Shown here: positions 1,761 through 34,286 of the stretch, in pieces
Layout of the letters: the number at the start of each line of letters is the position of its first letter
Position numbering within the stretch: position 1 is the stretch's first letter
Virus genome (UHGV): UHGV-1369766
Origin: a virus
Length of the DNA stretch: 38,287 nt
Reading direction: 5' to 3' (one strand)
Translations under genes and position numbers: made by a program
The notes under the pieces: generated by a model
Databases searched by the model: none
Told to the model about the DNA's origin: nothing
The model's input: the letters and a program-made list of their open reading frames with translations, nothing else

Positions 1761-2096
1761 TCACCTCAGGTGCTTACCACGTTCTTCAAACTCTTCTTGG
1801 CAATCAGCACGGCGCTGTGCATCCCACAACAGGAACTGCATATCAGCACACTCGCTGAGATCGTCAGGTTCGGCTGCGGCTTCCAGTGCCTCTTTTGAGA
1901 GGTGTTTCAGTGGACCAATGGGGCCAACGCAGCCAAATGTGGAGTCAGACCATTTGGCATGCTCGTGGCGAATCAGTTCGCGTTCCAGTGATGCCAGTGC
2001 AATTCGTGCCAGTTCCATTTGTTCGCCACGAGTAAGCCCGTTTTCAAGCGGATTTTTAATGAATAATTCGATACGTTCTTTGGTAATAGTGGTCAT
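1761..2096 (-). CDS. Hypothetical early-left protein
   Basis: 111 aa ORF, ATG with AAGGTGA RBS at 7 nt spacing; tightly packed with neighbours. Confidence 0.5.
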   Translation of the reverse strand: MTTITKERIELFIKNPLENGLTRGEQMELARIALASLERELIRHEHAKWSDSTFGCVGPIGPLKHLSKEALEAAAEPDDLSECADMQFLLWDAQRRADCQEEFEERGKHLR

Positions 2097-4374: not shown

Positions 4375-5082
4375 TTATGCCGCCTGTTTTAGTTCGTTAA
4401 CTCTGATGTTCATTACCTGAACGCATTTAGCCTGCGCCTCCTCGTTGCCAGCCATTAATTGCCAGTCATGCTGATAACGCTCGATGAGTTTTTTCTTGTC
4501 AGTTTCTGTCGCTGCATAATCGCTGAAGTCTTTCAGGATTTGTTCGCAGTCAATCGATGGAGATTTCTGGTTGGTATTTTCTGGTGATGGTTTGTTATCT
4601 GATGCTGGTATTGCCCATCCCGGCAGCGATGGAGGGAGCCAGTAAAATCCTGTTCCATCCTTGAGTTTTGCCCTGTGCCACCCCTGCTTTTTATCGAGAG
4701 ATGTTTGTGCAAAACCTTCCTCAAGGTTATACAGATACCGACCGATTCCCCACTGAACGGCAGCACGCTTCATTGCACCGGAACGACCACCTTTGACGGC
4801 TTCTACCTGTGTGTTTTCAGCAGCATCCCATTTGGTTACCCATTCGGAATCAATCTTTATTGATATGCCGCATTCAACGCCGCCGTTGTTGGGAATATCG
4901 CGGTATTCATTGCGCCATCCTGCTTTGCCGCAAACATCGTCCAGGCGTTTCATGATTGCCCGGTTCGTGACATAAGCCAGCACCATAGCCCACACCTTGC
5001 CATCGCGTGTTTTACCGCTTTGCTGTATTCGCCATTCGATATCTTCAGGGCTGAATGGCTCATCGAATTTATTCAAATCCAT
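4375..5082 (-). CDS. Single-strand annealing recombinase (Rad52/Sak-like N-terminus, Erf-like C-terminus)
   Basis: 235 aa; N-terminal part with GIGRYLY-type motif; C-terminal ~60 aa (...YAATETDKKKLIERYQHDWQL...CVQVMNIRVNELKQAA) matches my recollection of the P22 Erf C-terminus; GAGGTGA RBS. Confidence 0.75.
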   Translation of the reverse strand: MDLNKFDEPFSPEDIEWRIQQSGKTRDGKVWAMVLAYVTNRAIMKRLDDVCGKAGWRNEYRDIPNNGGVECGISIKIDSEWVTKWDAAENTQVEAVKGGRSGAMKRAAVQWGIGRYLYNLEEGFAQTSLDKKQGWHRAKLKDGTGFYWLPPSLPGWAIPASDNKPSPENTNQKSPSIDCEQILKDFSDYAATETDKKKLIERYQHDWQLMAGNEEAQAKCVQVMNIRVNELKQAA

Positions 5083-5090
5083 AATTCACC

Positions 5091-5279
5091 TCAGAATGGT
5101 AATTCGGATGGGGAGGAAAGAAATTCGCGCTCATTCATGCGCTCTCTTTGTGCTTGCCATAAACAAAGTTGTTTCTTTGATTTATCTCCCGCTTTACGCC
5201 AGTAACGAGCCTCAGCAATGTGATATTCTCTTTTTAATCGACTTAACTCTGGAGTTTTCGCCAGCTCTACCGGAATCAT
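5091..5279 (-). CDS. Hypothetical small basic protein (possible recombination accessory factor)
   Basis: 62 aa; GGAGG RBS 5 nt before ATG; start overlaps the stop of the upstream Kil-like gene. Confidence 0.5.
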   Translation of the reverse strand: MIPVELAKTPELSRLKREYHIAEARYWRKAGDKSKKQLCLWQAQRERMNEREFLSSPSELPF

Positions 5280-5389
5280 TTAGACCTCCATTTTCTGTAG
5301 GCTTCGACGGCCTCACGAAACATCTTTTCATCGCCAATAAAAGTGGCGATAGTGAATTTAGTCTGAATAGCCATAAGTGTTTTATCCAT
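5276..5389 (-). CDS. kil: Kil-like host-killing protein (37 aa)
   Basis: MDKTLMAIQTKFTIATFIGDEKMFREAV... closely resembles my recollection of the lambda Kil N-terminus; its ATG overlaps the cIII stop (ATGGATAA). Below the ORF-track size cutoff. Confidence 0.55.
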   Translation of the reverse strand: MDKTLMAIQTKFTIATFIGDEKMFREAVEAYRKWRSK

Positions 5390-5528
5390 TTTTTGGAACT
5401 CCTGGCTGATTAAGTACGTCGATGAGTCGTTTCCATCCGTCACGTAATTTACGGGTGATTCGTTCAAGTAAAGATTCATTTAATTGGAAGGCACCCATGC
5501 GAGCGCCTCCCGCGATTGCGTAAATCAT
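5382..5528 (-). CDS. cIII: CIII-like protease inhibitor (48 aa)
   Basis: MIYAIAGG...ESLLERITRKLRDGWKRLIDVLNQPGVPKNG matches the conserved lambda CIII core as I recall it; AAGGAA RBS; not in the ORF track (<60 aa) and out of frame with the overlapping 5276..5479 track ORF. Confidence 0.7.
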   Translation of the reverse strand: MIYAIAGGARMGAFQLNESLLERITRKLRDGWKRLIDVLNQPGVPKNG

Positions 5529-5552
5529 GGGTGGTTCCTTATGTTGGTTTTA

Positions 5553-6521
5553 TTAGTAGGTTATTTTTGTTGCGAATACTTCGCCTTTTACGATGGCTGT
5601 TATGATATTTTTAGCAACATCTTCTGATGCGCCAACCTTGATAAGGTCAGCAAGTATTTTGTTATTTACTTCTTTCCGGTGAGCTTTATCCTTTGCTCTA
5701 CGCTCTTCTTCGTCCTTGATTCTTTTTTCTTCTGCTATTCTGGCTTGCTCTTTTACTTCAGCCTCGCGCCGGATTCGTTCAGCCTCCTCCTGTGCTTTTC
5801 GGCGTTCTGCTTCAATTGCCGCCTGCTTTTCTCTTTCAGCTCGTTCTGCTGCCTCTTTTGCTTCGCGCTGTGCTCGTTGCTCGGCTTCAATGCGTTCACG
5901 CTCTGCACGTTCCGCTGCGGCCTTAGCTTCTGCTTCTCGCCTTGCTGCTGCTTCAATTTCGGCTTTTGCCTTTGCTTCGGCTTCAGCTCTGGCTTTCTCT
6001 TCAGCTTCTCTTTTTAAGCGTTCTTCATGCTCTCGCTTTTCCTGCTCAGCTTTGAGTCTTGCCTCTTCTCTTTGGCGGTCAAATTCGCGATCCATCAAAA
6101 TCGCTATTTCATGGTCAGACTCAATTTGCTTTGCGAGAGCTTCAGCTGCTGCCTTAGCTTCTTCTTCGGCTTTAATCCGCGCCTGTTCTTCCTCATAATC
6201 AGTAAGAGGCTGGCGCGCCTTGGCTTTCAGTTCATCAAGGCGATCACGCACTGTCTTGCGGTTGGCATCAATTAGCTTTGGAATTTCCTTAAGTTCAGCA
6301 ACAAGGTCTTTGCCAAGACCATCGAGATATGTTTTCGTCTGCGCAACTTTATACGCCAGAGAAGCGATCTCCTTTCTGCCCTTTGCCGTTGTGATATCAG
6401 GCACAAAGGACATAACTTCACGTTCAACCTTTTGGAGAATTTCTTCAATCTGGTCGGCAGACTGAAATACAGTCATTGCATTTGCTTTTTCAATAACAAC
6501 TAAATCTGTTACTTCACTCAT
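5553..6521 (-). CDS. Hypothetical protein with long E/R/K/A-rich predicted single alpha-helix or coiled-coil segment
   Basis: 322 aa from the ATG at 6519-6521 (GGAGGAT RBS); ~110 aa of charged repeats (AEEKARAEAEAKAKAEIEAAARRE...); position analogous to the ea10/ral/sieB accessory segment of lambda. Confidence 0.65.
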   Translation of the reverse strand: MSEVTDLVVIEKANAMTVFQSADQIEEILQKVEREVMSFVPDITTAKGRKEIASLAYKVAQTKTYLDGLGKDLVAELKEIPKLIDANRKTVRDRLDELKAKARQPLTDYEEEQARIKAEEEAKAAAEALAKQIESDHEIAILMDREFDRQREEARLKAEQEKREHEERLKREAEEKARAEAEAKAKAEIEAAARREAEAKAAAERAERERIEAEQRAQREAKEAAERAEREKQAAIEAERRKAQEEAERIRREAEVKEQARIAEEKRIKDEEERRAKDKAHRKEVNNKILADLIKVGASEDVAKNIITAIVKGEVFATKITY

Positions 6522-6533
6522 ATATCCTCCATC

Positions 6534-6561
6534 AAAAAAAACTGCCCTCACACTGGAGGGC
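6534..6561 (-). terminator. Intrinsic terminator in the PL operon (tL1-like)
   Basis: Minus-strand GCCCTC-CAGTGT-GAGGGC hairpin followed by AG and eight T; sits between the 207-aa and 322-aa genes. Confidence 0.75.
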
Positions 6562-6695
6562 AAAGAAGATTTCCAATAATCAGAACAAGTCGGCTCCTGT
6601 TTAGTTACGAGCGACATTGCTCCGTGTATTCACTCGTTGGAATGAATACACAGTGCAGTGTTTATTCCGTTGTTTATGCCAAAAATAAAGGCCGA

Positions 6696-7319
6696 CTATG
6701 CGGACTCGGAAGGAAGTCCAATCATCTTATTCAAATCTTCTACCCGTAAAGCAGGAAGTGCTGTACTTGCTTTGTCTGCTTCTTTTGGTAGCAATTCTTT
6801 GCTTTCAGGCCAAACTTCAATAAGTCGCTTAACTGTTGTGACTGAGTTCAAAGCAGCCCATACATTTGATTCGATATCCTTTTTCTTGGTTTCAAGTTTT
6901 TGTTGCAATGCGCAGATTTCATCAAACCTTTTTGTTATTTCGTGTTCTGCATCAAACATGCATTTATCTTTGGTTGGAGTAGGGAGCAATATATCTTCGC
7001 CGTTGCCGTCTTTCCCATATGAATGCCATCCAACCCTTCTGCCAGATACAGTCAGATAAATTGAAGTAGAACGAACATCGTATGAGTAAAATGAACATCC
7101 CATCTTTTCAAGTTCTTCACTTATAGCTACTAACCTGGATGATAACTGATCCACTTCCTCAGTTTTCTTTTTACCGCCAAACGCAATAACTCTGGCGTCA
7201 AGTGCAAGCTGGTTCTTTAACTTTGTTACTTCTTCAAGTTCAGTGAAAACCCCAGACTTAATTAAAGCGTTACGAGCGATTTTCTCTTTCATTCTCGTAG
7301 TTAAGCGGATTGATGACAT
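6696..7319 (-). CDS. Hypothetical protein immediately downstream of N
   Basis: 207 aa from the ATG at 7317-7319 (GAGGA RBS); 11 nt after the N stop and upstream of the tL1-like terminator; no family recognised. Confidence 0.6.
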   Translation of the reverse strand: MSSIRLTTRMKEKIARNALIKSGVFTELEEVTKLKNQLALDARVIAFGGKKKTEEVDQLSSRLVAISEELEKMGCSFYSYDVRSTSIYLTVSGRRVGWHSYGKDGNGEDILLPTPTKDKCMFDAEHEITKRFDEICALQQKLETKKKDIESNVWAALNSVTTVKRLIEVWPESKELLPKEADKASTALPALRVEDLNKMIGLPSESA

Positions 7320-7330
7320 ATTAATTCCTC

Positions 7331-7630
7331 TCAAATAAGTGGTTTGCTGCCTAATTTTATTTTCTGGCGACCAACACAAGTCACACCCATTTCACTGCGT
7401 GGCTTGCGGTAGTAAATACGGTTCTGTTTACGCTCGACTTCTTCTGCCTTCTTGCAGCGAAGGCTTCCGAGTGATGCTGCTTTGTCTGCTCTGACGCAAC
7501 CAGAGAGCTTTAGCGCAATTTTTCGCGCCAGTCGCTGCTCTTGCATTGCCTGTTCACGTTGAGCCTGTCTGCGTGCTCTGCGGCGATTTCTGGCGTTATC
7601 GTCAGCCAGATATGTAATGACTACTGTCAT
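7331..7630 (-). CDS. N: Antitermination protein N
   Basis: 99 aa; arginine-rich motif NARNRRRARRQAQ near the N-terminus; C-terminus ...YYRKPRSEMGVTCVGRQKIKLGSKPLI resembles my recollection of lambda N (...YSKPGERGITCSGRQKIKGKSIPLI); GGAGG RBS. Confidence 0.85.
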   Translation of the reverse strand: MTVVITYLADDNARNRRRARRQAQREQAMQEQRLARKIALKLSGCVRADKAASLGSLRCKKAEEVERKQNRIYYRKPRSEMGVTCVGRQKIKLGSKPLI

Positions 7631-7942
7631 GTTGACCTCCGATGAAACAACTTTGGAATTTTTTTATTACAAAGTTGTTTCCTTCCCCGCCAATTAGACG
7701 GGGATGGAAGAGCATTTATGAGCCTTCATGGACTCTGCTCGATCAGTTCTATTTAATTAATCTCTCAATTGAATGTAAGTATTCACATAAATCCTCCTAC
7801 CTCTTGTGCAGCTTTCTTGAATATGGTGGCGGCTGCATAACGCCTATGGAATTGACTTTGGCGGTGACGCGCCGGGTGCTTATCTTCCGGTTGCCGTCGT
7901 GCAGCTGCACTTCACGTCACCCCAAAGCCAACTACTCTTTGG

Positions 7943-7985
7943 TTCCCGCATTTCGGCGGGACAATCCCATCAATGTTAAAGAGCA
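7943..7985 (-). promoter_or_regulatory. nutL (boxA TGCTCTTTAA plus boxB hairpin CCCGC-CGAAAT-GCGGG)
   Basis: Minus-strand reading; the boxB is a 16-nt exact copy of the nutR boxB; ~40-80 nt downstream of the PL candidate. Confidence 0.65.
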
Positions 7986-8030
7986 TGCCAATCTGTTCCG
8001 TTTGGCTTCCAGCGTCCTGCTGATGGCTAA

Positions 8031-8059
8031 AGAATACTGTAGGTATTTTATTGTGTAAA
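8031..8059 (-). promoter_or_regulatory. PL-like early leftward promoter (-35 TTTACA, 17-bp spacer, -10 TATTCT)
   Basis: Read on the minus strand; both hexamers overlap operator repeats; same -10 hexamer and geometry as the PR candidate. Confidence 0.5.
8033..8047. promoter_or_regulatory. OL operator site (AATAC-TGTAG-GTATT)
   Basis: Perfect inverted half-sites with 5-bp spacer; one of six related sites. Confidence 0.6.
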
Positions 8060-8072
8060 TACCCAAGGTATT
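8058..8072. promoter_or_regulatory. OL operator site (AATAC-CCAAG-GTATT)
   Basis: Perfect inverted half-sites, 25 bp centre-to-centre from the neighbouring site. Confidence 0.6.
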
Positions 8073-8102
8073 TATTTTTGATGAAATAATGATAAGCAAA
8101 TG

Positions 8103-8117
8103 AATACAAAGGATATT
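8103..8117. promoter_or_regulatory. OL operator-like site (AATAC-AAAGG-ATATT, one mismatch)
   Basis: Imperfect copy of the same motif. Confidence 0.4.
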
Positions 8118-8203
8118 TATTTTTTCGGTGTCTGCTTGTTCAGTGCTTTTTATGCGGGATATGTGAAGTGGATCCCGATAGCTATTGCTGCCGGGATTAT
8201 AGG

Positions 8204-8572
8204 TTAGTCAGCGAAGGTTAAGACGAGAATTACCTTAATGATGTCTGCTACAACAGACACGGCCATAGATAAACCAAAGACGATCCAAGCCACAGTGATG
8301 TCTTCACTACCATCGTATAGAGTTCCGTAATCACTGGTGTAAGGCGTAAATGTCGCGCCTTGATACAATAGGTATAAGCTTGATCCATAGAGGATAAATG
8401 CAGATATCCCTTGTATTGCTATGATCACCAGAATCATGAAACGAGCTGATCTATGCGCCCAAGCCTGGCTTATTTTTTCTGATAGAGATTTCGCAATAAA
8501 AGCATGCGCTAAGCCGTAAATTGTCGAGATTGCCAACATCCCAAAAAAGCTTGCTATAGCGGTTCCAACCAT
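8204..8572 (-). CDS. Small three-helix membrane protein downstream of cI (rex-position gene)
   Basis: 122 aa from the ATG at 8570-8572 (AAGGGG RBS, 17 nt after the cI stop); three hydrophobic segments; same strand and operon position as rexAB in lambda. Confidence 0.6.
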   Translation of the reverse strand: MVGTAIASFFGMLAISTIYGLAHAFIAKSLSEKISQAWAHRSARFMILVIIAIQGISAFILYGSSLYLLYQGATFTPYTSDYGTLYDGSEDITVAWIVFGLSMAVSVVADIIKVILVLTFAD

Positions 8573-8589
8573 AATCGCCCCTTGCGTGA

Positions 8590-9306
8590 TCAAACCAGCC
8601 TTAGTTTTGTCTCAATTGCAACGCCTATAATCTTGCAGTTTCCATTGATTGGCACGAGAGGCCATGCAGGATTAAGTCCCTTGAGGTATTTATTTCCGCC
8701 GTCGATTATCAGCTTCTTGAATGTTGCTTCGTTAGAGTCAGAAAGTTTTGCTATGACCAAGCTGCCGTTGATCGCCTCCCTTCCGGTATCGAAAAGAACG
8801 AATGTTCCCTCTGGAATGCTTAACCCAACCGGTGCCGTCATTGAATCACCTTCCACTTTAAGCCAGAACGCATTACCTTGAATATGCGCGTCAGACTCAA
8901 GCCAAACATCTATGTCTTTAATGGTGTATGGTTCGCATGCTTCACACCACGAGCCAGCCTGGATACTGCTTAACACCGGATACCTCTTTCCTGCTCTGTA
9001 TTCCCCTGCATACCTTACGTTGGCATCGCTCTTAAGGCTTTCTGCCTGTTCTGCAACCTTGGCAGCAATTGACTGGCTAAAATCAGCAATTGAGACTTGC
9101 AACAGTCGTGCAAAACCAGATGCAACCTCAACGTTTAGCGCGTTTCTGCCATTAAGATAATGCCCTACCGCTCCTTGGGTGATACCCAGTTCATCAGCGA
9201 TTGAGTATTGGGTTATTCCCAATTCTTTCTTTTTTGACTCATACAAAGCCTTAAGCCGCTTAGCGTCTTCGAGCTGTTCTGTCGTCAGTGATTTTTTATT
9301 TTCCAT
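8590..9306 (-). CDS. cI: CI-type prophage repressor (HTH plus LexA-like S24 peptidase domain)
   Basis: 238 aa; N-terminal HTH (QYSIADELGITQGAVGHYLNG), C-terminal autocleavage-type domain (...VEGDSM...KL...); divergent to cro across an operator-rich intergenic region. Confidence 0.9.
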   Translation of the reverse strand: MENKKSLTTEQLEDAKRLKALYESKKKELGITQYSIADELGITQGAVGHYLNGRNALNVEVASGFARLLQVSIADFSQSIAAKVAEQAESLKSDANVRYAGEYRAGKRYPVLSSIQAGSWCEACEPYTIKDIDVWLESDAHIQGNAFWLKVEGDSMTAPVGLSIPEGTFVLFDTGREAINGSLVIAKLSDSNEATFKKLIIDGGNKYLKGLNPAWPLVPINGNCKIIGVAIETKLRLV

Positions 9307-9317
9307 AGCTTAATTCT

Positions 9318-9332
9318 AATAGCTAAGGTACT
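9318..9332. promoter_or_regulatory. OR3-like operator (AATAG-CTAAG-GTACT, degenerate)
   Basis: Weaker copy, 24 bp from the next site, nearest cI. Confidence 0.35.
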
Positions 9333-9341
9333 TAAACTAAA

Positions 9342-9356
9342 AATACCCTGAGTATT
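9342..9356. promoter_or_regulatory. OR2-like operator (AATAC-CCTGA-GTATT)
   Basis: Perfect half-sites; overlaps the -35 of the PR candidate. Confidence 0.6.
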
Positions 9357-9383
9357 GATTGCTTTGAATACCTGTAGTATTCT
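9355..9383 (+). promoter_or_regulatory. PR-like early rightward promoter (-35 TTGATT, 17-bp spacer, -10 TATTCT)
   Basis: Hexamers overlap the OR2 and OR1 sites; ~30 nt upstream of cro. Confidence 0.5.
9367..9381. promoter_or_regulatory. OR1-like operator (GAATAC-CTGTA-GTATTC)
   Basis: Perfect 17-bp palindrome including flanks; overlaps the -10 of the PR candidate. Confidence 0.65.
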
Positions 9384-9412
9384 TTGTTCATGGTTAATAA
9401 CGGAGAGTGCAT

Positions 9413-9607
9413 ATGATTCGAATGACACTTGCCGATTACGCCAAAATCCATGGACAGGCTAAAGCAGCCAGTGACTTTGGTGTAATCCAGTGCGCTATCA
9501 GCAAGGCCATTCTGGCAGGTCGTAACATTATGGTTACGGTAAAGCCTGATGGCAGTGTGATTGGAGAGGAAGTTCGTCCTTTCCCAAGCAACAAGAAAAA
9601 CAAATAG
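9413..9607 (+). CDS. cro: Cro repressor
   Basis: [33 protein letters not shown]...FPSNKK closely parallels my recollection of lambda Cro; GGAGAG RBS before the ATG at 9413 (track ORF starts 6 nt earlier at GTG). Confidence 0.85.
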
Positions 9608-9613
9608 TAACAC

Positions 9614-9658
9614 CGCTCTTTAACAGTCATGGTCATCATTCCCGCCGAAATGCGGGAA
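9614..9658 (+). promoter_or_regulatory. nutR (boxA CGCTCTTTAA plus boxB hairpin)
   Basis: boxA matches the lambdoid consensus CGCTCTT(T)A; followed 15 nt later by the TTCCCGCCGAAATGCGGGAA hairpin; lies between cro and cII. Confidence 0.7.
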
Positions 9659-9715
9659 TACAACGCGCATAAGTTGATGCGCATAACTTCTTATTAGTTA
9701 AGGAAATACTTACAT

Positions 9716-9994
9716 ATGCAACTTACAAGTACTCGCAAGAAAGCGAATGCAATTACAAGCAACATCCTGAATCGAATTGCTGTACGTGGTCAGCGAAAGG
9801 TTGCCGACGCGTTAGGGATTAATGAATCGCAAATTTCGCGATGGAAAGACAGCTTCATCCCAAAAATGGGAATGCTTCTGGCTGTTCTTGAATGGGGTGT
9901 TGAAGACGAGGAGTTGGCGGAACTGGCTAAGAAAGTAGCCAGAATGCTGACAAAAGAAAAAGCCCCGAAGAACGGCGAATTCTTCGAGGCCTGA
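9716..9994 (+). CDS. cII: CII transcriptional activator
   Basis: ...SQISRWK...IPKMGMLLAVLEWGV... matches the conserved lambda CII core as recalled; AAGGAA RBS. Confidence 0.85.
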   Translation: MQLTSTRKKANAITSNILNRIAVRGQRKVADALGINESQISRWKDSFIPKMGMLLAVLEWGVEDEELAELAKKVARMLTKEKAPKNGEFFEA

Positions 9995-10028
9995 TGTAGA
10001 AAGACTGGATCAATCCACAGGAGTAATT

Positions 10029-10190
10029 ATGACAAAACGTCGTAAGAAATACCAGGAAAAAGAAGAGATTCGACACCCTGATTCACCTGAGGGATTAGTG
10101 GTAGCCGCAGCAAATAACAGGGCGTTCGCAGAGCGCCTTGTTGGTGTTTACAGACTAGCCAAAGCAGGAGTGAAACATGGGCGTCGTTAA
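10029..10190 (+). CDS. Hypothetical small basic protein (53 aa)
   Basis: ATG with AGGAG RBS; not in the ORF track (<60 aa); overlaps the annotated start of the following gene. Confidence 0.3.
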   Translation: MTKRRKKYQEKEEIRHPDSPEGLVVAAANNRAFAERLVGVYRLAKAGVKHGRR

Positions 10191-11067
10191 GTTAGCTGAT
10201 TACAGGCATAACCCTGTACAACATCAGGAGGCATCCAGTATGGGGTATGTCTCTATACACCGCCAGTTTATGGACAGCAGGCTCTATAAGGACTCTCAGG
10301 CAGTACATCTTTGGCTTCACTTAATCCTCAAGGCTAATCACGAATCTACTGTCGTCAATACGGATATCGGGCCGATAACTGTTGATCGCGGTCAGATGAT
10401 AACTGGACGCCCGTCGCTGGTCAGAGAAACATTCATCCCCGACAACAAAGTTCGGAGCTTATTACGGACTTTTGAGTCGAAAGGGATGCTTAATATTTGC
10501 TCGATGGGGAAGAAATTTAGCCTGTTTACAATCGTTAAATATGACGATTTTCAGGCAAAAAATTGTCCAACGGTTGTCCAACGGTTGTCCAACGCAAACA
10601 CCAGTAATGGCGCGGCTCTCAGCGGAGATTGTCCAACGGTTGTCCAACGGTTGTCCATAAACAATAATATAAATAATATCTCTAATACTGACGTATTAGA
10701 GAGTGCCACAGCAGACAAAAAGTCTGACAAGAAAAAACCTTCCGTCAGCTGTCAGGATGTTGTCGATGCTTACCACGAAATCCTTCCTGAAGCGCCAAGA
10801 ATCCGCGCACTGAATGACAAGCGTAAAAACCAGATCCGAACGTTCTGGCGCAAAGCCGGAGTGATAACCCGCCAGCTTGACGGGCATGGGTTCACGATGC
10901 AGGACTGGAGAAATTATTTGAGCTACGTAGGCGAAAATTGCCGATGGATGTTCGAAGAACGCCCAAACCATCAACGCGGAACCGTCTGGCACAAAAAGGG
11001 ATTTGATTTCCTGCTTAACGACAATACCTACCTGAAAGTTCGTGAGGGTGAACACGATGACCGATAA
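10177..11067 (+). CDS. Replication initiator (lambda O functional analogue) with embedded origin iterons
   Basis: 296 aa ORF; the 11-bp iterons at 10563-10659 lie inside the coding sequence (encoding the repeated CPTVVQRLS peptide), as in lambdoid ori-in-O arrangements; stop overlaps the helicase start. An alternative start at ATG 10239 (AGGAGG RBS) is possible. Confidence 0.75.
   Translation: MGVVKLADYRHNPVQHQEASSMGYVSIHRQFMDSRLYKDSQAVHLWLHLILKANHESTVVNTDIGPITVDRGQMITGRPSLVRETFIPDNKVRSLLRTFESKGMLNICSMGKKFSLFTIVKYDDFQAKNCPTVVQRLSNANTSNGAALSGDCPTVVQRLSINNNINNISNTDVLESATADKKSDKKKPSVSCQDVVDAYHEILPEAPRIRALNDKRKNQIRTFWRKAGVITRQLDGHGFTMQDWRNYLSYVGENCRWMFEERPNHQRGTVWHKKGFDFLLNDNTYLKVREGEHDDR
10563..10700. 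repeat. Origin of replication: six 11-bp iterons (TTGTCCAACGG) in two triplets plus an AT-rich tract
   Basis: Direct repeats at 10563-10594 and 10629-10659, then aaacaataatataaataatatct; embedded in the initiator gene. Confidence 0.8.
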
Positions 11068-13514: not shown

Positions 13515-13935
13515 AATTCGATCTCCAGCACATCAGCAAAACGCTATTCACGCAGTACAGCAAATCCTTCCAGACCCAACCAAACCAATCGTAGTAACCA
13601 TTCAGGAACGCAACCGCAGCTTAGACCAAAACAGGAAGCTATGGGCCTGCTTAGGTGACGTTTCTCGTCAGGTTGAATGGCATGGTCGCTGGCTGGATGC
13701 AGAAAGCTGGAAGTGTGTGTTTACCGCAGCATTAAAGCAGCAGGATGTTGTTCCTAACCTTGCCGGGAATGGCTTTGTGGTAATAGGCCAGTCAACCAGC
13801 AGGATGCGTGTAAACGAATTTGCGGAGCTATTAGAGCTTATACAGGCATTCGGTACAGAGCGTGGCGTTAAGTGGTCAGACGAAGCGAGACTGGCTCTGG
13901 AGTGGAAAGCGAGATGGGGAGATCGGGCTGCATGA
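13495..13935 (+). CDS. ninB: NinB (Orf) recombination protein
   Basis: MKKLTFEIRSPAHQQNAIHAVQQILPDPTKPIVVTIQERNRSLDQNRKLWACLGDV... is near-identical to my recollection of lambda NinB. Confidence 0.9.
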   Translation: MKKLTFEIRSPAHQQNAIHAVQQILPDPTKPIVVTIQERNRSLDQNRKLWACLGDVSRQVEWHGRWLDAESWKCVFTAALKQQDVVPNLAGNGFVVIGQSTSRMRVNEFAELLELIQAFGTERGVKWSDEARLALEWKARWGDRAA

Positions 13936-14459
13936 CTATCAAATCAAATACGCCAGCACACGACAAGGACTGCTGGCAAACGCCGCTTTGGCTTTTTGAT
14001 GCACTGGATATTGAGTTTGGATTCTGGCTGGATTCGGCAGCGAGCGACAAAAATGCTCTGTGTGCTCACTGGCTAACTGAGGCCGACGACGCGCTCAATT
14101 CTGAGTGGGTAAGCCACGGTGCAATCTGGAATAACCCACCGTACAGCAATATCAGGCCGTGGGTGGAAAAAGCTGCTGAGCAGTGCATACAACAGCGACA
14201 GACGGTAGTGATGCTTGTGCCAGAGGATATGTCTGTCGGATGGTTCAGCAAGGCTCTGGAGAGTATTGACGAAGTTCGCATCATCACTGATGGACGGATT
14301 AATTTTATCGAACCATCGACGGGGCTGGAGAAGAAGGGAAACAGCAAAGGCTCCATGCTGCTGATTTGGCGACCGTTCATCAGTCCTCGACGGATGTTTA
14401 CTACTGTATCCAAAGCGGCATTGATGGCGATCGGGCAGGGCGTCAGGAGGGCGGCATGA
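13932..14459 (+). CDS. Phage Dam-type DNA N6-adenine methyltransferase (orphan)
   Basis: ATG overlaps the ninB stop (ATGA); contains WNNPPYS (the (D/N)PPY catalytic motif); no adjacent restriction endonuclease gene. Confidence 0.8.
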
Positions 14460-32289: not shown

Positions 32290-34286
32290 TGGCTAAAGCA
32301 TGGAAAGATGTTATCGCCTCTCCACAGTATCAGGCGTTAGCACCAGAACAAAAAGCGCAGGCTCAGGAGCAATACTTCAATGAAGTCGTGGCCCCGCAAG
32401 CTGGAGAAAATGCAGAGCAGGCTAAGCAAGCTTTCTATGCTGCCTATCCATTGCCATCTGCGCAGCCAGTTGATACACAGCAACCAGTAGCACAGCAACA
32501 ACCACAGCAAAGTGGATTTATGTCTGATCTTGGTGAAGCAGTGAAAGAGACTGGTCGCGGACTGGTGCAGGCTGGCGTGAACGTGGCAAACATACCTGCA
32601 TCAGTTGCCGATGCTGTAACGAGCGCGGCGGCTTGGGCTGGCGGTAAACTCGGCATTGGCGATGGGACATATCAACCAGCGCCACGAGTAACAACGCAGG
32701 GATTAGAGCAGGACTTTGGCCTTCAGCAAGGCGCGCTGACTCCACAAACGACAGAGGGAAGGGTATTTGCTGAAGCATTGCCTTACCTCACTCCTGCTGG
32801 CGTTGAGAGAGCAGCAACACAGGCACCAACACTTGCTGGTCGAATTGCTCAGGGGGCAACACGACTTCTCGCAGAAAACGCAGTTGGATCACTTGCTGCA
32901 AATAGTGCGAAAGATGATGCGGAAGCACTCGCCACCGATTTAGGCGTTGGTGTGCTGGCTGGCGGTGCTATTAACGCTGCCGGACGTGGATTAGGTGCTG
33001 CTTATCGTGGCGTTCGTGGTGCTATTGCGCCAGAAGCGCAGCAGGCTATCAGATTTGCAGAGCGTGAAGGAGTTCCTCTGCACACCACAGACCTGTTACA
33101 GCCTACTTCCCGCGTCGGGAAAATGGCGCAGACTACAGCAGAAAATATCCCCCTGGCTGGCACAAGCGGAATGAGAGCAACGCAACAGGAAGCGAGAAGC
33201 CAGTTGGTGCAGAGATTTGCTGATAAATTCGGTGAGTATGATCCAGCTGTTGTTATTGACAGCCTTAAAGCGAAAACATCAGGAATTCGTCGTGCTGCAG
33301 GGAACCGTCTTGAGCAGGTTCAGAATGCAATGGCAGGAGTCAACATTCAACCTGCACGAGCAATTCAGCAGATTGATACTGAGATATCTAACCTGCAGAA
33401 GCTTGGTAAGGTGGCTGATAACGAGACAATTTCAAAACTTCAATCCTATCGTGATGAGCTTGTTCGCAATGCTGGTCCTGATGGTCCGGTAAATCTGGAT
33501 TTGAAGCAATTAAGCGATCTGCGCAGCCAGTTCAGAATGGACGTGAAGGGTGAGCGACCAGTGTTACCAAACCGTTCCGATGCTGCCATTCAGCGCGTTT
33601 ACAAGGCGATGACCGACGATATCAATGGTGCCATTGGTCAGAATCTTGGCAACGATACTCTCCGTAAATATCAGCAGGCCAATGCCGTCTACGCTGACGA
33701 AGCGGCGAAACTAAAGAATACCCGGCTGAAGAATGTTCTCATGAAAGGCGATCTTACTCCGGAAGTTGTCAACAGCATGCTATTCAGCAAGAACAAATCG
33801 GAAATTAAGACGCTGTACAACTCAGTTGGCCGTGTTGGCAGGGCGCAAATGCGCAATGGCATCATTGGAAAGGCGATGGAGAAATCAGGTGGATCCCCTG
33901 ACCAGTTCCTTCGGCAGCTTAATATCCTGCAAAACCAGACTGGCATCACATTTAAGGGGCAGGACGCTGCTTATCTGAAAGGATTAAAAAACTATCTGCA
34001 ATCCACGCAGCAGGCTACAAAAGCGGCAGTAACAACACCAACAGGGCAGCAAACCATCCCGTTCATTATCGGATATGGGACGGCAATGAACCCGGCGACA
34101 ACTGGCGCAGCAGTAAGCTACGGCCTTCTTGCTCGCGCCTATGAGAGTGAGCCATTCAGAAATGCAATGCTACGAATGGCAAACACACCACACGGATCAA
34201 CAGCGTTTGAGAAAGCCATGCAGCAGGCGCAAAAGGCAATTAACGCTATGACGCAGGGGGCTAAGTCTGAAGCGTTGTCAGAATAG
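32289..34286 (+). CDS. Ejection protein (P22 gp16-like)
   Basis: 665 aa; order and approximate size as P22 gp16; last gene of the plus-strand late block before a strand switch. Confidence 0.75.
   Translation: MAKAWKDVIASPQYQALAPEQKAQAQEQYFNEVVAPQAGENAEQAKQAFYAAYPLPSAQPVDTQQPVAQQQPQQSGFMSDLGEAVKETGRGLVQAGVNVANIPASVADAVTSAAAWAGGKLGIGDGTYQPAPRVTTQGLEQDFGLQQGALTPQTTEGRVFAEALPYLTPAGVERAATQAPTLAGRIAQGATRLLAENAVGSLAANSAKDDAEALATDLGVGVLAGGAINAAGRGLGAAYRGVRGAIAPEAQQAIRFAEREGVPLHTTDLLQPTSRVGKMAQTTAENIPLAGTSGMRATQQEARSQLVQRFADKFGEYDPAVVIDSLKAKTSGIRRAAGNRLEQVQNAMAGVNIQPARAIQQIDTEISNLQKLGKVADNETISKLQSYRDELVRNAGPDGPVNLDLKQLSDLRSQFRMDVKGERPVLPNRSDAAIQRVYKAMTDDINGAIGQNLGNDTLRKYQQANAVYADEAAKLKNTRLKNVLMKGDLTPEVVNSMLFSKNKSEIKTLYNSVGRVGRAQMRNGIIGKAMEKSGGSPDQFLRQLNILQNQTGITFKGQDAAYLKGLKNYLQSTQQATKAAVTTPTGQQTIPFIIGYGTAMNPATTGAAVSYGLLARAYESEPFRNAMLRMANTPHGSTAFEKAMQQAQKAINAMTQGAKSEALSE

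Follow-up and report, generated by a model that had tools for sequence, protein, structure and literature searches.

The early-left (PL) operon of phage lambda is among the closest described systems. Its terminator tL1 lies in the N-ral gap, upstream of the small RNA (sRNA) PreS; the lambda record J02459 is without a tL1 annotation. Lambda LPR1/PreS is an Hfq-dependent sRNA between ral and ea10. It is about 88 nt long, with a processed form of about 68 nt, ends at the early-left terminator tL2a and up-regulates host dnaN (10.1101/2024.10.31.621285). For the protein family Nmad5, the described case is that of Dhillonvirus, in which a single Lys-to-Glu exchange (K216E / K296E) gives escape from the Tmn defence, deletion of the gene does not, and the gene was apparently too toxic to clone; the escape loci are PhiSMS22 CDS6 and PhiSMA8 CDS7 (PMC11846954). 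The locus described here is found in UHGV virus genome UHGV-1369766, a stretch of 38,287 nucleotides that was analysed whole and is called the window below. Its minus strand, at 6696-7319, almost certainly carries a genuine Nmad5-family gene that occupies the ral slot of the PL operon and has PreS/tL2a behind it. The sequence-only reading, which had placed here an unassigned 207-aa gene expressed from PL ahead of a strong terminator, is partly supported. The gene and its flanks are as follows.

7331..7630, minus strand. N-like antiterminator, 99 aa, with an Arg-rich N-terminus (phrog_271, E 1.7e-36).

6696..7319, minus strand. Nmad5-family gene, 207 aa (ATG 7319-7317, TAG 6698-6696).

6534..6693, minus strand. 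Conserved lambda-type ral-ea10 spacer with a 14-bp hairpin, a PreS/LPR1-like sRNA (about 6534-6621) and a terminator; recognised by identity to lambda.

6534..6563, minus strand. Intrinsic terminator, homologue of lambda tL2a (stem 6542-6563, loop CAGUGU, U8 6534-6541).

The N gene ends in TGA at 7333-7331 and Nmad5 begins 11 nt further on; the coordinates, with stop and start read from the sequence, agree with the earlier placement of a 207-aa gene 11 nt past N. A Shine-Dalgarno (SD) motif, GAGG at 7330-7327, stands 7 nt ahead of the Nmad5 ATG and abuts the N stop codon. In the list of open reading frames (ORFs) the start is a TTG at 7379, within N. Homologues all begin MSSIRLT. The TTG-started version (6696-7379, 227 aa) is rejected, since it overlaps N and has no homologue support. 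Plus-strand ORFs within the gene (e.g. 6658-7059) are discounted, by judgement, as antisense in a conserved gene. The ratio of nonsynonymous to synonymous substitution rates (dN/dS) is 0.28-0.41 against four close phage alleles; differences are few, and the values are rough evidence of constraint only.

Pfam assigns the protein to PF18757, Nmad5 (nucleotide modification associated domain 5; InterPro entry IPR040835), with E 9.4e-72 and 241.8 bits at a cutoff of 27. Residues 4-203 cover profile positions 1-206 of 206, and each half matches separately. The match to phrog_1965 has E 2.7e-83. The earlier statement that no family could be recognised gives way to full-length membership in Pfam Nmad5 and phrog_1965. 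Close homologues are named 'Nmad5 family putative nucleotide modification protein' by NCBI. Identity to the 207-aa protein is 99% for mEp235_037, 96.6% for the HK542 copy (HK542_033) and 95.7% for Stx1a-phage copies; the copy of E. coli MP1 (Kapi1 host) has about 96% nucleotide identity. The Kapi1 member is Kapi1_018, and the Kapi1 annotation already names the Nmad5 motif. The members in mEp235, HK542 and Kapi1 share with that of the window the single domain of about 207 aa and the C-terminal module WPE / LNxxIGLP. In RefSeq the gene is annotated Nmad5 in 211 of 5,426 complete E. coli genomes. Near-identical copies are already deposited and named, and the gene itself is not new; the observation of an unknown gene of no family is largely explained by existing database entries.

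The family comprises 2,276 cluster representatives at 50% identity (E<=0.001), nearly all of about 200 aa and single-domain; all 62 members scanned have the single-domain architecture. A literature search on PF18757 and IPR040835 found no papers. The NCBIfam profile search of the 207-aa protein gave no match, and the PADLOC defence-profile search gave nothing at E<=0.1. A Pfam YfjL_C match (E 0.005) is rejected as chance, being present in one of the 62 family members. A SAP/HeH/Rho_N-like reading of the C-terminal 'LPALRVEDLNKMIGLP' tail is rejected; it has no Pfam support even at E<=5.

By its placement, Nmad5 follows N directly as gene number two of the PL operon, in an exchangeable cassette slot. 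The right border of the slot is sharp: the genomes compared have their homology breakpoint right at the stop codon of whichever gene precedes PreS; in lambda and many prophages this gene is ral. The prophage of E. coli EC17GD31 has the order of the window, N - Nmad5 - PreS - 'TolA'-like - cIII - kil. N (identical protein, WP_000219338.1), PreS and 'TolA' are shared by the EC13 prophage, which has ral and a 140-aa membrane-looking gene between N and PreS. In lambda and CFT073, ral stands directly ahead of PreS. In SWYH.B349aT a 156-aa gene and a 'superinfection exclusion protein' lie between N and cIII. Genes for anti-restriction or exclusion had been said to be frequent in this segment; the sibling slots (ral; ral with the 140-aa gene; the 156-aa gene with the 'superinfection exclusion protein') agree with this, as guilt by position only. 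Search by tblastn with the lambda and EC13 Ral proteins gave no match in the window at E<=1, so the window is without ral. Lambda Ral has the same position as Nmad5, last gene before PreS/tL2a in the PL operon, and both are small, non-essential early accessory genes. The two proteins differ in length (66 aa against 207 aa) and share no sequence similarity. About 750 bp separate N and ral in lambda, whereas Nmad5 abuts N in the window.

The junction with N is kept in relatives. It has the same 11 nt in HK542, and Stx2a phages keep Nmad5 immediately after N. In the Stx2a phages (L009), the C-terminal block of the window-type N is fused to the N-terminus of a 933W-type N. By tblastn, Nmad5 appears split into two pieces (aa 1-37 and 34-207) in 48 matching Stx2a-phage records. 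In the one record examined, LC616041 (L009 919-2251), the reading frame is interrupted past about codon 56 by an IS3-family element (orfA 108 aa, orfB 296 aa). The split indicates that the gene is dispensable for those Stx2a prophages.

Promoter-proximal position is found also beyond E. coli. Six prophage or contig loci of other Enterobacterales, representing five distinct contexts, were compared; in each the leftward early operon either opens with Nmad5 or has it as the second called gene. Klebsiella and Serratia prophages have a repressor, a terminator, a promoter-like site, a leader of about 200-250 nt and Nmad5 first, with no N ORF. In Providencia, in Pantoea and in a metagenome contig it is first or second after the repressor. 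This comparative position backs the predicted early expression of Nmad5.

The 134 nt between the Nmad5 stop codon and the terminator stem are not an empty spacer but the PreS/tL2a element of lambda. From the Nmad5 stop to the U-tract, 154 of 158 nt (97.5%) are identical to lambda 33,925-34,082 (ral-ea10 intergenic). Of 331 phage records that match this spacer, 324 do so at 95-99% identity. The fold of the window copy has a z-score of -4.85. In the PreS-sized 3' part 84 of 86 aligned nt are identical to lambda; identity of at least 92% to lambda LPR1 is the criterion applied in bioRxiv 10.1101/2024.10.31.621285. As in PreS, a GC-rich hairpin and a poly-U 3' end stand within the early-left operon. 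Rfam 15, run on 5000-10500, gave two chance-level matches only and none at the PreS element.

The terminator stem has 8 pairs and a folding free energy (dG) of -12.7 kcal/mol; none of 200 shuffles folds as well. The strong intrinsic terminator proposed at 6534-6561 is thereby upheld by the terminator scan, the stem with U8 and the shuffle test. Its proposed identity is not: taken as the first PL terminator in the sense of tL1, it is a homologue of tL2a, with a stem identical to that of lambda. Both copies have a U-tract and belong to the early-left operon; they differ in two bases between the stem and the U-tract, and the window has the longer U-run (U8, against U6AU in lambda). The lambda element is flanked by ral and ea10, the window copy, a putative PreS, by Nmad5 and the 'TolA'-like gene. 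What it has in common with tL1 is that 6534-6561 would be the first stop for unmodified PL transcripts; lambda has tL1 after N, whereas here no terminator-like element follows N. Terminator and spacer together are an already described lambda element.

Just 5' of the PreS-sized region lies a perfect 14-bp hairpin (CUGUGUAUUCAUUC/GAGUGAAUACACGG, about 6618-6657, minus strand), the 3' arm of which reaches the 5' end of the region. It is 100% conserved with lambda and could be a processing site setting the PreS 5' end; a search for a described role of this hairpin found none. In mEp235 (L001 4594-4613) and EC13 (L003) a terminator-like hairpin, GAGGCCG-CATAGT-CGGCCTT followed by TATTTTT (dG -11), overlaps the stop codon upstream of PreS. 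A second terminator at the Nmad5 stop of the window (6680-6706) is rejected: a G-to-T exchange destroys the hairpin (dG -5.4, z -0.07). The same G-to-T (Ala to Ser in the protein tail) is present in the window and in EC17GD31.

Upstream of Nmad5 the promoter region contains the following elements.

8059..8031, minus strand. PL-like promoter, -35 TTTACA, 17 nt, -10 TATTCT; found by promoter scan, overlapping OL.

8034-8046 and 8059-8071, PL region of the minus strand. OL operator palindromes ATACC-N4-GTAT, found by pattern search.

7944..7984, minus strand. nutL, read from the sequence: boxA GCTCTTTAACA at 7984-7974, boxB hairpin TCCCGCCGAAATGCGGGA at 7961-7944.

A minus-strand terminator scan from PL to 6563 found no terminator-like site ahead of 6563-6534, and the 11-nt gap between N and the next PL gene contains no tL1-type terminator. 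No terminator-like site standing between PL and the 3' flank of the gene, transcription without N is a reasonable inference, and in this phage it is likely for Nmad5. Because a tL1-like site is absent and only 11 nt separate N from Nmad5, unmodified PL transcripts would run PL-nutL-N-Nmad5-PreS and stop at tL2a (6534-6541). Nmad5 and PreS would then be among the first products of infection or induction, with N required for cIII, kil and the recombination genes. Without the tL1-like site, PreS would belong to the N-independent PL transcript, unlike in lambda.

The earlier claim of expression from PL without antitermination stands in that PL/OL and nutL are placed as expected with no intervening terminator; it falls short in that immediate-early placement is not fixed for the gene, the exceptions being mEp235 and Kapi1. 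In mEp235, nun stands between N and Nmad5. The strong terminator of nun (dG -10.3) is followed by what remains of a window-type N 3' end and then by Nmad5, ahead of which no promoter-like site was found. To judge by this layout, the mEp235 gene must depend on antitermination. Kapi1 has the order N - 112-aa (nun-sized) gene - Nmad5. Immediate-early timing is, on these gene orders, not universal for Nmad5. Of the window-type N, the mEp235 remnant (L001 3844-3980) keeps about 90 nt of the 3' end unchanged (...YYRKPRSEMGVTCVGRQK.KLGSKPLI), including the Nmad5 SD. It has the look of a scar left by recombination, and it shows that Nmad5 and the 3' end of N move together as a block.

A delayed-early Nmad5 is rather unlikely in the window. 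It would be effectively delayed by Rho-dependent termination, by RNase III processing of the N leader or by weak translation. Rho-dependent termination and RNA processing are not readable from sequence. Lambda tL1 is partly Rho-dependent, and such sites are invisible to hairpin scans. Such a delay is favoured by the N leader (7631-8024, minus strand), which is long (about 395 nt) and strongly structured (minimum free energy -148 kcal/mol, z -5.98), and by the clear need of mEp235 Nmad5 for terminator readthrough, with the gene order shared by Kapi1. It is opposed by the 11-nt gap with the SD beside the N stop, at which continuous translation should shield the RNA from Rho, by the absence of an intrinsic terminator-like site from the scan, and by those prophages without N in which Nmad5 is the first PL gene.

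The AlphaFold2 model of the protein (24-sequence alignment) has a mean predicted local distance difference test score (pLDDT) of 85.6 and a predicted template modelling score (pTM) of 0.69. Three long helices make up the N-terminal part; a small beta-hairpin region, a helix of 30 residues and clustered short helices at the C-terminus complete the fold, with low confidence for the last ~25 residues. A BFVD structure search with the model returned Nmad5 models (template modelling score up to 0.75, E 1e-12) and no other significant match. PDB sequences searched with phmmer and with a 62-sequence profile gave nothing under E 0.2, and Foldseek against PDB gave a best E of 0.26. The remote homology search and structure prediction that had been proposed as a check accordingly led to the Nmad5 family and to no solved-structure relative.

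Among 62 diverse members, R43, G48, G49, G93, T162, L166, W170, P171, E172, L176, P178, L196, N197, G201 and P203 are invariant or near-invariant. The residues listed from G48 onward are all carried by the window protein, each invariant or at least 90% conserved in the 62. The family motifs are present: the GG loop, the beta-hairpin Gly, T-x-K-[KR]-L-x-x-W-P-E, L-P and L-N-x-x-I-G-x-P. Conservation is concentrated in T-x-K-[KR]-L-I-x-x-W-P-E-x-x-E-L-x-P and L-x-x-L-N-x-x-I-G-L-P. A conserved His/Asp/Cys/Ser cluster was sought in the 62-member alignment; none was found, nor any catalytic-looking residue set. The isoelectric point (pI) is 7.6 and the net charge +1. A DNA mimic of Ocr/ArdA type is rejected: the protein is not acidic and gave no structural match.

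We infer that Nmad5 would be a binding protein and not an enzyme. The tentatively favoured reading, given a probability of about 0.4, is that of a non-enzymatic early counter-defence or host-takeover factor acting via its conserved C-terminal module. The protein would be mostly helical, with T-x-K-[KR]-L-I-x-x-W-P-E ... L-N-x-x-I-G-L-P as the most conserved surface. It would act by binding a host or phage DNA-associated protein complex, not by catalysis, as a functional analogue of ral's slot-mates. In its favour count the exchange with ral in the slot, the dispensability of the gene, the lack of catalytic-looking residues and the Tmn escape of Dhillonvirus. In Dhillonvirus BF9, K215/K216 (BF9 numbering, not that of the published phages) align with K164/R165 of the window protein, within the T-x-K-[KR]-L-I motif, to which the escape Lys appears to map. 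Dhillonvirus Nmad5 belongs to the same family, and its C-terminal 100 aa are about 32-36% identical to the window protein. It is the larger protein, of 254 aa in BF9 and more in PhiSMS22, and its beta region contains a big insert. The BF9 gene is inserted, on the opposite strand, within the head-gene module of this virulent phage.

Several points weigh against the counter-defence reading. The family owes its name to the DNA base-modification genes that accompany it, and not to any tie with defence. The single experimental datum on it concerns Dhillonvirus and not a lambdoid protein, and the Tmn result fits other readings, e.g. Nmad5 as one of several triggers. Sharing a slot with ral is guilt by position, and the slot also holds genes of unknown function. 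No similarity to known anti-defence proteins was found, and the protein is not acidic.

The name derives from neighbourhoods with base-modification genes in lytic phages, and these bear on the main alternative, possible but doubtful. In it, Nmad5 would be an accessory subunit aiding DNA-modifying or replisome enzymes on new phage DNA, here the phage Dam or host methylases. Ral alleviates restriction by enhancing type I modification, and the accessory role is reminiscent of it. Such a role accords with several contexts. In M6/SN1-type Pseudomonas phages Nmad5 belongs to a thymidine-hypermodification cassette with hydroxymethylase, aGPT-Pplase, kinase, radical S-adenosylmethionine (rSAM) and pyridoxal phosphate (PLP) enzymes. 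In the N4-like Shigella phage B2 it stands between thymidylate synthase and replication genes, near the DNA polymerase gene. A Providencia prophage has it ahead of DUF2800, a single-stranded DNA (ssDNA)-binding protein and DNA polymerase A, and in a metagenome prophage a C5 methylase is found further along its operon. In Salmonella phage SPN3UB (L010 2049-4621) the nin region carries a distant Nmad5 (36% identity), which a single Eaa gene separates from a gene for a queuine tRNA-ribosyltransferase (DpdA-like). The SPN3UB context suggests 7-deazaguanine DNA modification in a lambdoid phage and would be a second modification context for the family.

The genomic association with base-hypermodification enzymes that defines the family is absent from the window. 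The neighbours here are N, PreS, 'TolA'-like, cIII, kil and Rad52/SSB/Abc2. No thymidylate-synthase-like hydroxymethylase, aGPT-Pplase, kinase or DpdA was found among the window proteins. A Dam-type N6-adenine methyltransferase is encoded in the nin region (13872-14459, plus strand), which is in keeping with the accessory role; this only modification enzyme of the window is about 7 kb away, in a different operon. Against that role, too, Nmad5 is promoter-proximal in PL and swaps with ral and small accessory genes, not travelling with any enzyme. It is apparently disrupted by an insertion sequence in many Stx2a phages, and the Dhillonvirus copy is inserted in a head module on the opposite strand.

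A host-takeover explanation apart from defence is unlikely: a toxic early protein binding and inhibiting an essential host process, as Kil does, and favouring lytic growth, with Tmn-like systems sensing its effects. It would suit the apparent toxicity of the Dhillonvirus homologue in cloning, the altered Tmn outcome of the point mutants, expression from PL with kil and cIII, and the helical, non-enzymatic look of the protein. Deletion of the gene left Tmn sensitivity in place, however, no target is known, and toxicity is reported only for a distant (~25-30% identical) and larger homologue. Very improbable is a superinfection-exclusion or defence gene expressed in the prophage, like sieB or rex: the same slot holds 'superinfection exclusion protein' or sieB annotations in other prophages, but the gene shares the strand of PL, starts 11 nt past N and has no promoter-like site of its own downstream of PL, so that it should be repressed in the lysogen; PADLOC gave no match, and the family is abundant in strictly lytic phages.

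The surrounding region carries these further features.

8590-9306, minus strand. Repressor, by PHROG match.

9343-9355 and 9368-9380. OR operator palindromes of the same ATACC-N4-GTAT pattern.

9407-9607, plus strand. cro, by PHROG match.

9615-9657. nutR, after cro, with the same boxA and boxB as nutL.

9716-9994, plus strand. cII, by PHROG match.

5553..6521, minus strand. Glu/Ala/Lys/Arg-rich coiled-coil protein, 322 aa, RefSeq 'cell envelope biogenesis protein TolA' (phrog_1376, E 6e-110, function unknown).

5382-5528, minus strand. cIII, after the 'TolA'-like gene and followed by kil; from ORF translations.

The palindrome ATACC-N4-GTAT occurs 6 times, with 0.09 expected by chance, and is clustered at OL and OR flanking the repressor gene. 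The Pfam N_peptide match of the N-like protein is weak (E 8e-4, under the family cutoff); in related prophages the gene is annotated antitermination protein N. A 12-bp hairpin directly ahead of the N SD is reminiscent of the lambda RNase III site. A 138-aa plus-strand ORF in the N leader (7642-8058) is probably spurious. The 'TolA'-like gene, whose RefSeq label is taken from the EC17GD31 stretch (L005), is the first past tL2a and would need readthrough of it. The gene after tL2a is 'TolA'-like in the window, ea10 in lambda and cIII in mEp235, which makes this place another swappable slot.

A multi-pass membrane-looking gene of 129 aa (probably 122 aa) at 8204-8593 (minus strand) overlaps the repressor stop codon, in the position of lambda rexA/rexB. 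Its product matches phrog_6534 (function unknown); Pfam, NCBIfam and PADLOC gave no family for it. The gene is a candidate for exclusion or defence expressed in the lysogen. Within it, at 8363-8375, lies one more operator-like palindrome, ATACCTATTGTAT. Near the integrase end, 1761-2096 (minus strand) encodes a dATP/dGTP pyrophosphohydrolase-domain protein (PF04447). Overall, the window is a prophage of the P22-like (Lederbergvirus-type) kind whose early region is a lambdoid mosaic.

A wider form of the favoured reading is doubtful. Nmad5 would be a large unrecognised immediate-early counter-defence family (>2,000 clusters), at the front of PL in temperate enterobacterial phages, interchangeable with ral and neutralising an immune sensor or effector. 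If true, its targets may be KAP/Tmn-type NTPases, for example, or restriction via enhanced modification, bound by the WPE/LNxxIGLP module. The 'nucleotide-modification' neighbourhoods of lytic phages would reflect a shared anti-restriction purpose, not enzymology. In the window, Nmad5 would share a single N-independent transcript with PreS, an sRNA that hijacks replication.

The remaining interest is in a very widespread phage family that has its name by guilt by association. A promoter-proximal early-left position across genera, allelism with ral, dispensability and a Tmn-escape residue apparently in the most conserved motif together make a concrete hypothesis for phage-defence work. PreS in an N-independent transcript would be a small, testable departure from the regulatory layout of lambda.

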